From: Escherichia coli
GTDB lineage: Bacteria; Pseudomonadota; Gammaproteobacteria; Enterobacterales; Enterobacteriaceae
NCBI RefSeq assembly: GCF_030013595.1
Contig: NZ_CP122769.1
Reading direction: 5' to 3' (one strand)
Length of the DNA stretch: 64,000 bases
A program made the position numbers. Positions 26,901 through 32,900 of this stretch are shown here, one piece after another. Positions within the stretch are counted from its first letter, which is position 1. Every line of letters starts with the position of its first letter.

Positions 26901-29900
26901 GAACGCACAAAACAGCTATTTGAAGCATCGTCAAAATAGCAAAGCACAGCGCAAATTAGAGCAGCCTGAATATTTCAATTTGGTGCAAGAAAAGTTTCTG
27001 ACAGAAAACTGGTCGCCCGAACAAATCAGCGCACGATTAAAATTGGAAAAATCTGAATTATCCATTAGTTATTCAACCATTTATCAATTGAGAAGCGGGA
27101 AGGCCGCGAGGCCGAAATTGGCTGCTAGCTTTTCCGTGAAAATACTCTTGCTCATATGGGGTAGTATTATATCAAGCGCAATGGCTGCCGGCATGCTTAC
27201 TGATACATCAATAAGCAGCTTATTGTTAGCCACTTTAATGTCAGGAAGCTTAAGCTCTGTTAGTGTTTTGGCTATTCTCTCTCCTCTTGGAAGACTGGTT
27301 GAAAGAGCCAGGAATATTTCCAATAACCCATTAAGTCAATCCCTCTACACTGGGCGCACCGATGAGTTTGGCCAAATAGAGTTTGCTTTACGAATGATGC
27401 AAGCTGAAACAGGCGCCATAGTAGGTCGCATAGGTGATGCATCAAATCGGCTTAGCGAACACACCCGAGGCCTACTAAAGGATATTGAGTCAAGCAATGT
27501 ACTTACAGTTGAGCAGCAGGCAGAGACAGATCAAATAGCAACGGCAGTAAACCAAATGGTGGCAAGCATTCAAGAGGTTGCGAGCAATGCACAGCATGCT
27601 GCAGATGCGGCCGGAAGAGCAGACACTGAGACGGCATCTGGCCAGCGTCTGGTAGCCCACACAAGCCAGTCAATCACTGCCCTTGAAGGTGAAATTAGGC
27701 AAGCCACTCAGGTTATTCATGAGCTTGAAGGTCAAAGTAACGAGATATCAAAAGTTCTTGACGTTATACGAGGGATCGCCGAGCAAACGAATTTGTTGGC
27801 ACTCAACGCAGCAATTGAGGCCGCGCGTGCTGGTGAGCAGGGGCGTGGTTTTGCTGTTGTCGCCGATGAGGTTCGCAGTCTTGCTGCTCGCACACAGCAA
27901 TCGACAACGGATATTCAAAGCATGATCAGCGCTCTACAAGAGCGAGCGCAATCCGCTGTTACAGTCATGGAGCAAAGTAGTCGGCAAGCGCACACGAGTG
28001 TAGCTCACGCAGAGGAAGCAGCTACAGCTCTTGATGGAATTGGCCAACGCGTTAACGAAATTACCGACATGAACGCGCAAATAGCGACTGCGGTCGAGCA
28101 GCAGGGAGCAGTAAGTGAAGACATAAACCGCAGTATTATCAATATACGCGATGCTGCTGATACCAATGTACAGACCGGGCAGAATAATTTGCAAAGTGCG
28201 AAATCTGTCGCTCAGTTAACTAGCGCTCTGAGCGAACTGGCAAAACAGTTTTGGGAAAAACGAGGATAACGCTTTTCAGTATCTCGACAGGGATAACTTA
28301 CTTTACCATCGGTTATCCCTTTTAGCCGCACAAATTTTAGCCATGGCTTTTCAGGAAGTCAGGGCTATCAGAATGGCCTTAGAAAGCCTAGTCAAAGAGC
28401 TGTCACGAGAACACCGTTAGCTTAGCGTACGATTTTTTCCGAATTCTGCGGTTCCCCCTTAAATACCTTCCGATGGACTTAAACCTTGCCGCTGCAACTT
28501 CCTCGAAATAGGGCAGCATTCTTTTGCTGGCATTAGCGATTGCCTGCGTTCGTTGTGTGATGATTTTGCTGATGGCTGTGCTGATCTGCCCTTCTTTTAA
28601 GGCCGCTTCTCTGATTTGTTCAATGCGGGTATCTGAAATACCAGAGGACAGAGCATTCTGAACTGATCCAATTGCCAAGGAAGTGACCGCCTGCTGCTCT
28701 TGAGAGGGCACTAACGCAACGCTAATGCCCGTCACAGGGTTTTCACGGTCATCTGTACCTAATTGCTCAATCGCGAGGTCACGGAGCCCCTGAGCATCAC
28801 TCACGAGGGCTGTAAGCGATGCCTGTAGGCTATTCACTTCTTCCTGAGCTTGTCTGAGTTCAGCATCCCGGATTACCTTATGGTCGGGTTCAAATACAAA
28901 ACTGGACAGAAAATCCTTAACCAGGAAGCGATGCTCTCGCATTTCTTTGCCACGTTCCCTACGGTAGCCACTGCTGTCTTCAGTGACAATAGCAACAGTC
29001 TGACCGTAAACGCGGGGATGGGCGCGTAGAATTACTGTATGCAGCTTATCTTCAACGTAACGCAAAGACGTAATGAGCAGTGTATCCCCTGCCACAATAC
29101 CCTCTTCAGGGATGCTGTCAGTGGACGTCCAGTACTGACCCGCCAGCAAAGAATGAAATCGCTCTAAACGGTCAATGCTATTTTTGCTGACCAGGTCACC
29201 CATATACTTTTCCTTCCAGATTCGTGTGTTAGGTGAATCATACCAGATTGCCCTTGCCGTCTAATAACGCAGAAAACTGTGAATCCAAAATTCCTTAAAT
29301 TCAAACCTGTCCAATATAAAAGATGGCTCTTTTTCTTATCCAGTGTTAAGCGATAATGCTCAATTTTATTTCATTATTGTCAGAATCAAAATAATCTGAA
29401 AATAAAAAAGGCTTCAGAATTGAAGCCTCTATATTATACAACGTGAATGTATTTTATTTATCTTTCACCGGGTTCATTTCCCAGTATCTTTCACGTACGT
29501 TTTCTTGGCAATGGTCCGCTCGCTCCGGCGTGTCCCTTTTACGAGTAGCAAATGCTTCAATTACGGCATTCAAGTCTTTTTCTTTGATTTTAGATCCAAC
29601 AGGCAAGTTTTCTTCAAACTCAGTCCTTACCAGTTCTTTCGTTTTTTTATAATCGGTTTCACTTTGGATTTCAGGTTTTAAACAAATATCGGCAACCATC
29701 ACATCTGATTTGCCCGGGATCGGTTTTTTCCCGTTTTCAGATGCAAGGACCGCAGAGGAGGTAAAGGCGACAGACAGAGTTGCACATAACAGAAGGTATT
29801 TTAATTTCATGACTCACTCCATGATTATCAATGATGGTTGCTCAGACACATCATTTATACCATGCCTGTCACCGAATACGAGATCCCCATATTTTGGCTT

Positions 29901-32900
29901 TAAATATTATCCAATAGGGTTTCATACACCTGGCTTCTGAAAGCAAGGTTCAAGGAGCTTCAGGGGGAAATCAGATTGTTGTCGACCCAGTACTTGTGCA
30001 AACCTACCACCCAATTCCTGGAAATGGACGAAAGTTCATGCGCCAGTTCACGACAGCATTCAGGCGTAAAAATACGTATGGGTCCTGAAGTACCGATATC
30101 AACAGACATGATAAACTCCAGAATGTTGCCATGGCATAGGTTGTTTCTCAGCCTGACAATTTCTGCTTCAGGTGTTCTCCCGGCTGCTACCTTAACCAAC
30201 ATATCCTGCTCGGCTGGAAATGAAAGTAATTCTACCGGCACCCCTTCCTGCTTGGCCTTTCTCAGTAAGGCATTACTCATTACGGAGATACCCTCCAAGT
30301 CCACCAGCTCAGGAGCTGCATGCTGATCGTTAACTGTTGGTTTCAGCATCAGCGACTTCAACGTAACCATGAGTGATGTTTCAATCCCGTTCAGGAAGCT
30401 CGTACAGGCCGGTATCCATAGTTCGTGATGCAACGCCTCGGTTGCTTGTTTAAAGAACCAGTCAATCACGGGGACAGTGTGATAATCATAATAGTGATTT
30501 ATCTCGCTGAATCTTGACATATAAGCATCGTACTCAGCCTGGTCTTCAGGAGATAAAAAATTTGGTGGGAGGGGCATCAGAATCCTTTCATCCTAGCTTG
30601 TATACCTTCTTCGTAGGCCAGCTCGCCATTATCGGTAAAAGATGGTTTTTGGTGTTTGTGACAAAGCTTAATTTTTCGTCAGGCTCGATAGCGTTACCGG
30701 AGAGATTTGATCTTTTCTCTGTAACTCGCAATACTGTTTATACATACAGTATGAGAATTCGAGTGTAGCTATGTCTGTTATCCTTGAGCACATTAGCAAC
30801 AAGCCTTACGAAATGGCACCTTTTTTCAGTGATTTACTGAGCTGTGGAGTGATGAGTCCGTGCGCCGGGCATGAAGATAATGAATTAAATTTGCATGAAT
30901 ATGTAGTCCGTAACCGCCCCTCAACCTTCTTTGTCAGGGCGGCGGGCCTCAGTATGATCAATGCCGGTATCAATGATGGCGCTATTCTGGTTGTGGATCG
31001 GTCTTTAACGGCACGACACGGCTCTATCGTCGTTGCGCTGGTGGATGGAGAGTTCACGGTAAAGATCTTACACACGTATCCTGAGCTGCTTTTGATGCCT
31101 TCTAATCCAGCCTATAAGCCGATACGTGTAAATCCCGAATCCCTTGAGATATGGGGCGTCGTCACCTTTGCACTGAATCAGTTTAGCCATGTACATGCAC
31201 GTTGATATTAACGGGGCCTATGCGGCATTTGAGTGTGCGATGGATCCCAAGCTGGCAAAAAAGCCGCTCATCATAGCCAGCAATAACGATTCGTCCGTCA
31301 TTGCAATGAATAAACTGGCTAAAAGCGTTGGTATTAAGCGTGGGACCCCAATTTTTAAGTGCAGGGATTTGATTCAGCAACACCAGATCGAAGTCCGGAG
31401 CTCTAACTTTACTTTGTATGAAGACTACTCAAATCGCTTCCATGAAACGCTGGAAAGCTTCGCGCCTCAATCGAGTCGATATAGCATAGATGAAAATTTC
31501 ATGTTATTGAAAAACATGAACAAGATAATAGATTATGAAGATTACGGCCGGTTGATCAGAAGTACACTTCTTCATAATCTGTCCCTTACCTGTGGTGTGG
31601 GGTGTTCAAGCACCAAAACCCTGGCTAAATTATGCACCTATGCGAGCAAACGATGGGCAGCTACAGGCGGGGTTGTAGTTTTGACTGATCAGGCCAGGAT
31701 CAGGAAGCTCCTGGGCCTTATCAGTACCAGAGAAATATGGGGTATTGGTCAAAAGATCAGTGAACGCCTGTCGGCTTTCGGGATCATCACTGCCGGTGAT
31801 TTTTATAATAGCGACGTTCGCTTTTTACGTAAAAGCTTTGGCGTTGAAATCGAGCGTACCTGGCGGGAACTGCATGGCGAACCATGTTTCCGGCTGCATG
31901 AATCCCCTCCTGTCCGGCAACAGATTATCGTTTCCAGAAGTTTTGGTCAGCGCCTTAATGAGATAGGCAAGCTACATGAGGCAGTTTCATTTTTTACCGC
32001 CCGGGCGGCAGAGCAGCTGCGCAAGGATGGCTCGTGGACCCGTCAAATCACAGTCTTCATTCAGAGCAGCAATTATGCGCAAGGTGAAAACCGCTACAGC
32101 AATTGTGGTATCGAGCCGCTTACCGCTACACAGGACACCCGCGATCTGGTTGATGCAGCCATGACCATCCTGAACCGCATTTACAAACCCGGGATAGCGT
32201 ATGCGAAAGCTGGGGTAATGCTCTCCGCTATGACTGACGGCACAGAGCAACTCAGCCTGTTTGATGAGCGCCCGGCCAGGCCTGGCAGTCAGGCACTGAT
32301 GAAAGTTATGGACCGGTTCAATAAAGAAAAGCGCGGAGCTCTGTTTTTGCTGGGGGAAGGCATTCAACAGGATTTTCGTATGAAACAGGCCATGCTATCA
32401 CCGAGATATACGACCCGCTGGGATGAATTACTCGTTGTAAAAGCGTAGCGGCCATGACCGGCATGGCCGTACTCATCAAAAGTGAAAGTAACTTTAGGCC
32501 CCGCGAGCTTTTTCGATTGCGCCCTGCAAAGTTGCTGCGTCCATAGCCCCGGGGATAAATGTGGTAGTCGCCGCATTCGGCTTTTTCATATTCATAATGA
32601 TGAAGCCGGGTGTGCCGGTGATCCCAAGCGCTTCGCCCAGCTGCATGTTGCCGGAGATCACGTTTTCATATCGGTTTTTTTCCCTGTCAGAAAACGTGCT
32701 GTTAAACCCTGACTTATCCACCACAGTATTAAAGTCGCTGAGTTCGAATTTGCGTTGAGAGGTCATGAAGGTATGAGCCACAGCCATCAGGTTGTTGTGG
32801 TATTTACGATAGGCTTCAGCACCGAAATTCTGATAGACGTGCAGACCCGTAGCGGCCCCCATGGCAGATACAGGTTTTGAACCGGCAAAAATCGGGAATT

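Follow-up and report, generated by a model that had tools for sequence, protein, structure and literature searches.

Three open reading frames (ORFs) of 205, 118 and 266 amino acids (aa) lie beside umuDC on an Escherichia coli contig (NZ_CP122769.1, assembly GCF_030013595.1), of which we analysed a stretch of 64,000 nucleotides, here called the window. We are fairly confident that they are three unrelated items of an IncH plasmid backbone, standing against the right end of a resistance region derived from Tn1721. By its motif and its modelled fold, the 205-aa gene encodes a HEPN-domain protein, an assignment at the level of the superfamily that is modestly new. The 118-aa product is predicted to be a small periplasmic protein, and the 266-aa ORF is, on sequence comparison, a dead chimera and not a gene or a protein family. 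IncHI2 plasmids rank among the main vehicles of last-line resistance genes such as mcr-1, and much of their backbone is still annotated as “hypothetical”; one such gene can now be placed in the HEPN superfamily. The findings are mostly ordinary plasmid archaeology and hold little surprise for a plasmid specialist, the new parts being the HEPN assignment, the corrected pseudogene and the mapped Tn1721 junction.

The earlier note, made from the sequence of the window, had described a block of three minus-strand genes without an assignable motif, and three such ORFs are indeed present (Table 1). The region is 100% identical to Salmonella and E. coli IncHI2A plasmids with mcr-1, whose records list all three as hypothetical proteins, flanked by a gene for a methyl-accepting chemotaxis protein and by umuDC. 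No family was found at threshold in the Pfam and NCBIfam scans of the three window proteins, in the PADLOC and PHROGs scans of the 205-aa protein, the 118-aa protein and the intact large protein (1111 aa) of which the 266-aa ORF holds a remnant, or in the Pfam scan of the intact orthologues from plasmid pGENC174. The PDB sequence searches, run with single proteins and with profiles, gave no match, and the literature, searched by accession, for HEPN together with IncHI2 and for transfer polarity in IncHI, yielded no earlier work. The reported lack of a motif holds for these routine hidden Markov model scans, but not for the 205-aa protein, which has a recognisable HEPN Rx4H motif.

This motif reads R144-N-N-L-C-H149. 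The nuclease signature in the HEPN superfamily is such an R-x4-H flanked by N and G. The 205-aa protein has 133 relatives at E <= 1e-3, and in an alignment of 30 sequences the residues R142, R144, C148, H149, G150, N151 and E66 are invariant; the motif VR-x-R-[HN]-N-L-C-H-G-N and E66 are unchanged across 30 relatives with 35-77% identity. The AlphaFold2 structure (predicted local distance difference test score, pLDDT, 85.8; predicted template modelling score, pTM, 0.81) is predicted to be a four-helix up-down alpha-helical bundle, the HEPN fold, as judged by a fold search, and its matches to solved HEPN structures have less than 15% sequence identity. The distant relatives are about 186 aa long, come from diverse Gammaproteobacteria and, in one case, from a cyanobacterium, and show 38-49% identity; a genome scan adds betaproteobacterial loci. 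Three relatives carry the UniRef name “MAE-28990/MAE-18760-like HEPN domain-containing protein”. The gene has a Shine-Dalgarno sequence, AAAGGA, about 6 nt upstream of its ATG. A 206-aa gene divergent from umuDC in Acidovorax was also tested and is no HEPN relative.

The 118-aa gene, with GGAG 8 nt upstream of its ATG, encodes a product that had been described as secreted, and inspection by eye agrees with this. The protein begins with a Sec-type signal sequence (MKLKYLLLCATLSVAFTSSAVLA, about aa 1-23, with SENG following), laid out as MKLK (n-region), YLLLCATLSVAF (h-region) and TSSAVLA (cleavage site, followed by S), with no lipobox. The same layout is kept in five orthologues and in the relatives P0254 and P0257, including a chromosomal relative. 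The mature product of about 95 aa has two invariant cysteines, C43 and C101, and a conserved C-terminal RYWE in the alignment of the five orthologues, and is probably disulphide-bonded. No Pfam, PDB, PADLOC or PHROGs match was obtained for this protein. An exhaustive profile search among 1.84 billion proteins found 15 cluster representatives, and a word-index search likewise returned a tiny family. The chromosomal relative is solitary, with neither a HEPN gene nor a large gene near it. The protein is nearly confined to IncH plasmids and is fast-evolving, with alleles swapped by recombination; its possible roles are those of an accessory factor in the envelope or in conjugation and of a conflict protein. 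A 117-aa ORF that follows the Klebsiella homologue of the large gene was considered as a further family member and is an unrelated membrane protein.

Downstream of the 118-aa gene, the proposed terminator hairpin was recovered. It begins 24 nt past the stop codon, has the tail UUUUUUAUUUU and folds at -15.8 kcal/mol (z = -4.3), with 0 of 200 shuffles folding as well. The hairpin separates the 205/118 pair from the remnant of the large gene and, from its sequence, would end the 118-aa transcript. Nothing relevant was found by Rfam in the spacers.

The 266-aa ORF had been taken for a gene of its own; it is not intact, and its end is derived from a transposon. The intact large gene is found in pGENC174 (L002:5384-8719), and a tblastn comparison with its 1111-aa product covers only aa 1-239 in the window, where no 3' part of the gene is present. 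The remnant is predicted to keep no more than the beta domain at the N-terminus and a portion of a long helical hairpin. In the DNA alignment, window positions 28485-29277 correspond to L002:8001-8793 (793 bp, 97%), and positions 28458-28487 correspond to L002:4149-4178 (30 bp, 100%), a stretch within the 5' end of the next gene but one, a 163-aa ORF. Because these two DNA matches overlap by CTT, we assign a deletion of 3,822 bp (L002 4179-8000) at a 3-bp microhomology. The deleted part comprises the large gene from codon 240 to codon 1111, a 171-aa ORF and about 14 codons at the start of the 163-aa ORF. The peptide RFKSIGRYLR is common to the chimera and the 163-aa ORF, and the chimeric frame is made up of 239 codons of the large gene, 1 straddling codon, 9 codons of the 163-aa ORF and 17 codons plus the stop from the transposon. 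The exact junction of the window recurs in about 70 records, and the annotation WP_223230068.1, present in dozens of RefSeq records, is corrected here to a transposon-generated chimera.

The right-hand boundary of the acquired region is a 38-bp terminal inverted repeat inside the 266-aa ORF. The idea that the ORFs mark an insertion edge therefore holds in so far as the right-hand edge is located here, but the edge lies within the 266-aa ORF and not beside it. The inverted repeat is 93% identical to the TnAs1 end (at the end of the tnpA gene) and nearly identical to the copy at the opposite junction in plasmid p2474-MCR1; the copies at the two junctions differ, with GGGGGAACCG... here and GGGGAGCCCG... 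at the other. More than 4,000 plasmids contain the segment 28280-28460. The plasmid p2474-MCR1 still carries the other part of the 163-aa ORF, at a distance of about 25 kb from the remnant of the large gene, and the junction of this part reads ...gccaaaatcTTAAA followed by GGGGAGCCCGCAGAATTCGGAAAAAATCGTACGCTAAG, while the window junction reads ...GGTTCCCCC followed by TTAAAtacc. The target-site duplication TTAAA is found at window positions 28459-28463 and at L024:3785-3789 in p2474-MCR1, where L024:3785-3827 spans it together with the other inverted repeat, and the uninterrupted TTAAA target is found at L002:4150-4154. As the same five bases flank both inverted repeats, we ascribe the arrangement to a Tn3-family transposon that entered the 163-aa ORF; the window does not include the left flank of the transposon. 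The original target was thus the 163-aa ORF of pGENC174, and not a site at the three ORFs, as had been suggested.

Tn1721 and Tn1722 belong to the Tn21 subgroup of the Tn3 family. The element found here resembles them in a 38-bp inverted repeat ending ...ACGCTAAG, in an mcp gene immediately inside it and in the 5-bp duplication TTAAA, and is the same remnant as the Tn1721 “IR-delta-mcp” of thousands of enterobacterial plasmids. Unlike Tn1721, it has only the mcp-proximal end here, and an ISApl1 fragment beside mcr-1-pap2 has taken the place of the 5' end of mcp. The structure of Tn1721 is described as IR-mcp-res-tnpR-tnpA-IR-tetR-tetA-pecM-delta-tnpA-IR, where IR stands for the 38-bp inverted repeats, and “IR-delta-mcp” remnants are widespread (PMC7319535). 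Because mcp lies inside the inverted repeat in this structure, the truncated chemoreceptor gene, previously taken as a sign of the original insertion site, is transposon cargo: it is the mcp of Tn1721 itself, 5'-truncated and fused to the ISApl1 fragment. Its stop codon at 28269 is 151 bp from the inverted repeat. The fusion is a 520-aa ORF on the plus strand (26707-28269), directly downstream of mcr-1-pap2, which joins the N-terminal helix-turn-helix of an IS30-family (ISApl1) transposase in frame to mcp; the homology to intact mcp starts at 27084, and pSA186_MCR1 has the intact form, with 525 aa. Upstream of the truncated mcp, the window contains ISApl1, pap2, mcr-1 and blaTEM-1.

The order of events can be proposed from these junctions. 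A Tn1721-family element would have inserted into the 163-aa ORF, duplicating TTAAA, and a separate 3.8-kb deletion would then have fused codon 239 of the large gene to the rest of that ORF, the fused frame now running through into the transposon inverted repeat. The TTAAA entry point in the 163-aa ORF and the 3.8-kb deletion can serve as a lineage marker for tracing how the IncHI2 multiresistance region evolved.

The earlier note had taken the genes as backbone and named an alignment to resistance-free IncHI2 backbones as the check. Across IncH plasmids, the order umuDC, about 205 aa, about 118 aa and about 1111 aa is conserved in pGENC174 (an R478-like IncHI2 plasmid), in two further IncHI2-like alleles and in IncHI1A plasmids, and 1,180 plasmid records, almost all conjugative, match the HEPN/118 pair. 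Because of this shared gene order and these plasmid records, the HEPN gene, the 118-aa gene and the large gene are assigned to the IncH backbone and not to the cargo. An IncHI1-like locus (L045:8001-8931, E. coli GCA_018890215.1) shows a deletion that joins the HEPN gene to the last 110 or so codons of the large gene; the 117-aa gene is gone there, and umuDC-HEPN is retained. The LexA box listed in Table 1 sits in a 193-bp spacer common to umuD and the divergently transcribed HEPN gene and is given for context only.

It is very unlikely that the three ORFs form one operon or system in which the HEPN protein, the secreted protein and a large effector act jointly. The order and orientation are strictly kept in five IncH backbones, and the HEPN and 118-aa genes co-diverge within one island, both of which would suit a common system. 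However, a strong terminator and a 250-bp spacer stand ahead of the large gene, and a 149-bp spacer separates the HEPN and 118-aa genes. Hundreds of relatives of the large gene are found on plasmids without the other two, HEPN relatives and one 118-aa relative are found alone, and more than 400 IncHI2 plasmids have no working large gene, with the other two genes unchanged. The single functional block that had been assumed is thus not upheld: the terminator splits two of the ORFs, and the three families differ in their distribution.

Table 1. Positions in the window of the three ORFs and of the features that surround or interrupt them
Feature	Position	Strand	Description	Remark
205-aa ORF	29960-30577	minus	HEPN-fold protein, predicted RNase	intact gene
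118-aa ORF	29454-29810	minus	pre-protein with Sec-type signal peptide	intact gene
266-aa ORF	28403-29203	minus	WP_223230068.1 in RefSeq	chimeric frame, pseudogene product
Intrinsic-terminator-like hairpin	29407-29430	minus	10-bp stem, 4-nt loop, T-run	
5' remnant of the large gene	28487-29203	minus	codons 1-239	98% identical to WP_000502666.1 (1111 aa, pGENC174)
CTT microhomology	28485-28487		deletion junction	3-bp overlap of two BLAST segments
163-aa ORF remnant	28459-28484	minus	in-frame fusion to the large-gene remnant	...RFKSIGRYLR
38-bp terminal inverted repeat	28421-28458	minus	Tn1721-family (Tn3-family)	reads GGGGGAACCGCAGAATTCGGAAAAAATCGTACGCTAAG on the minus strand
5'-truncated mcp of Tn1721	27084-28269	plus	HAMP and MCPsignal	transposon cargo
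Divergence island	29285-30400		118-aa gene, its flanks and 3' two-thirds of the HEPN gene	from sliding-window identity
LexA (SOS) box	30732-30751	plus	TACTGTTTATACATACAGTA	perfect; 20 bp upstream of umuD

The divergence island is a sharp-edged segment of 1.1 kb, where the identity to pGENC174 (L002:8800-9900) falls to 43-85%, compared with 95-100% in the flanks. The number of synonymous substitutions per site (dS) between the window and L002 is 1.65 for the 118-aa gene and 0.38 for the HEPN gene, against 0.05-0.10 in umuD, umuC, dsbA and the N-terminus of the large gene. This difference from the neighbouring genes indicates, at the level of sequence, that a diverged allele was imported by recombination. 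Between closer alleles, the ratio of nonsynonymous to synonymous substitution (dN/dS) is 0.2-0.54 for the HEPN and 118-aa genes versus 0.04-0.15 for their neighbours. Gene-wide positive selection was considered and rejected on a dN/dS below 1, the evolution of the two genes being faster nonetheless. Among the IncH plasmids, the small-protein alleles are graded, with identities of 86%, 76%, 46% and 28%.

For the possible function of the 205-aa protein, the neighbours of its relatives were surveyed at 20 loci, and no partner gene is conserved across them. One HEPN copy is found on a Thiomicrospira island beside a restriction-modification system, TIR and caspase-like genes and a PIN/Phd pair, one is cargo of an integrative and conjugative element (ICE) in Pseudomonas, and others are found in arrays of same-strand small ORFs. 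In the Oryzisolibacter array (L037:300-6200), each ORF, including the HEPN homologue, is followed by a CTAAC...GTTAG attC-like repeat, in 8 copies; since this repeat follows every ORF of the array, we consider the homologue to be an integron cassette. An Rfam scan of the cassette arrays found nothing relevant. Two HEPN copies are found 3 kb apart in Billgrantia (L029:2638-3198 and 5819-6379). A 1572-aa protein beside the Pseudomonas homologue was compared with the 1111-aa family and shows no relation to it.

The lack of a conserved partner and the settings in defence islands, ICEs and cassettes lead us to favour a solitary latent ribonuclease (RNase) with a role in abortive infection or exclusion. 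A compact single-gene function of this kind, either abortive infection or the exclusion of competitors, that benefits the plasmid is most likely. By analogy with other Rx4-6H HEPN proteins, the protein would dimerise into a composite RNase site (R144/H149), and the RNase would cut RNA once triggered. The 205-aa protein and its relatives resemble the solitary abortive-infection HEPN proteins (AbiV, HepS and AbiU2-type integron cassette proteins) and the MAE_28990/MAE_18760-like HEPN family (Pfam PF18737) in the all-helical bundle with the invariant Rx4H. They also share with the solitary HEPN RNases the length of about 190-205 aa and the occurrence as a single gene on mobile elements, in defence islands and in integron cassettes. 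The 205-aa protein differs from the known HEPN RNases by an extra beta-hairpin (157-169) and an N-terminal helix. Single-gene integron cassettes have been described to include phage-defence proteins, one of them a HEPN protein (AbiU2-type) active against T4 and T7 (bioRxiv 10.64898/2026.03.17.712381). We consider this a precedent and not evidence, as it belongs to a different HEPN subfamily. If the RNase interpretation is true, the plasmid may have a nuclease of its own for abortive infection or exclusion, encoded by a single gene.

A toxin for plasmid addiction (post-segregational killing) is an unlikely function for the 205-aa protein. In this case the antitoxin would have gone unrecognised and might be a small RNA, an overlapping ORF or the 118-aa protein. 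The HEPN fold, the Rx4-6H motif and the plasmid location are indeed shared with the HEPN-MNT pairs (SO_3166/SO_3165; PDB IDs 7ae2 and 5yep), but unlike these the 205-aa gene has no adjacent MNT nucleotidyltransferase gene, neither here nor at the 20 related loci, and its product is about 60 residues longer than typical HEPN toxins. No other partner was found either: the neighbouring genes are without nucleotidyltransferase or antitoxin domains, no partner gene is shared over the surveyed loci, and single-gene integron cassettes occur. The signal peptide of the 118-aa protein would place an antitoxin in the wrong compartment, and each of the two proteins occurs without the other. The Rfam scan of the spacers found no RNA that could take this role.

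The 205-aa protein might instead be a catalytically inert HEPN-like bundle with a binding, regulatory or structural function, for example in transfer or in the control of umuDC, with the arginine and histidine kept for a ligand. Several of its HEPN-fold matches are non-nucleases (sacsin, Roquin and nucleotidyltransferase substrate-binding domains), in IncH plasmids the gene and umuDC are invariably divergent, a linkage that survives deletions, and the gene-wide dN/dS below 1 would also be in line with such a function. The invariant R-x4-H with its flanking N and G is, however, the nuclease signature of the superfamily, and the relatives outside IncH have neither umuDC nor transfer genes nearby, and we regard the inert bundle as improbable, too.

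Several observations weigh against the favoured reading. No HEPN Pfam model reaches the threshold on the window protein, where PF18737 gives no match at E <= 1, and PF18737 is found only sub-threshold in 3 of the 30 relatives (best E = 0.028); for this reason, we filed the protein under the HEPN superfamily and not under the PF18737 family. None of the defence models of PADLOC-DB 2.0 matches the 205-aa protein, and a simple scan upstream of its gene showed no promoter-like site. The dN/dS is raised but remains below 1, so that relaxed constraint fits as well as conflict. A few large plasmids (our H149-H152) keep just the 5' end of the HEPN gene or the DNA upstream of it, and the HEPN/118 pair is therefore not essential. 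We know of no family member for which RNase activity, toxicity or phage protection has been established by experiment.

The large gene is dispensable, being truncated, eroded, split or deleted in many plasmids. Any part of it is found in 715 plasmid records, 298 with a nearly full-length gene and about 417 with 5' remnants only, and no second matching place for the 3' part was found among the sampled truncated records. In many other records, IS26 has eroded the remnant to 56 codons, and the 118-aa and 205-aa proteins remain identical. The loss has occurred repeatedly in resistance-loaded lineages. In the IncHI1A plasmid p852-MDR (L022:4502-7838), the large gene is annotated as two coding sequences of 483 bp and 2847 bp, which suggests a frameshift or nonsense mutation.

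The 1111-aa protein belongs to an orphan family with more than 370 relatives of about 1,100-1,170 aa, with about 36-40% identity over the full length. Plasmids and ICEs carry them in Klebsiella, Providencia, Burkholderia, Agrobacterium, Acidovorax and other bacteria. None of the more than 370 relatives has a Pfam domain, and no structural relative was detected. The PADLOC search gave a weak KwaB/DUF4868 match (E = 0.003, 14.9 bits) to residues 752-822, in the part missing from the window. The genes found next to members of the family include an N6/N4 methyltransferase, GmrSD_N with an AAA ATPase, and AcrVA2-like with DUF3846 genes. The recurrent neighbours at three relatives (L005, L025 and L027) suggest a neighbourhood for establishment or anti-defence. 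The HEPN gene and the periplasmic gene could together be an IncH-specific conflict cassette shuffled by recombination, for example an abortive-infection RNase with an envelope factor, and the 1111-aa protein, separately, a new establishment or anti-defence protein; we consider this proposal possible but doubtful. The family is a reasonable target for studies of plasmid establishment.

Two minor observations concern the acquired region. Inside the Tn1721 end, positions 28274-28371 on the plus strand gave an Rfam match to the isrL small RNA with 18.5 bits, compared with a gathering threshold of 35 (E = 0.022), which is probably due to chance. To the left of the blaTEM-1/mcr-1 segment, the region 16785-22136 encodes a DUF4942 protein, a protein annotated as hypothetical, a DUF1173 protein and a DNA cytosine methyltransferase, and IS1 comes next.

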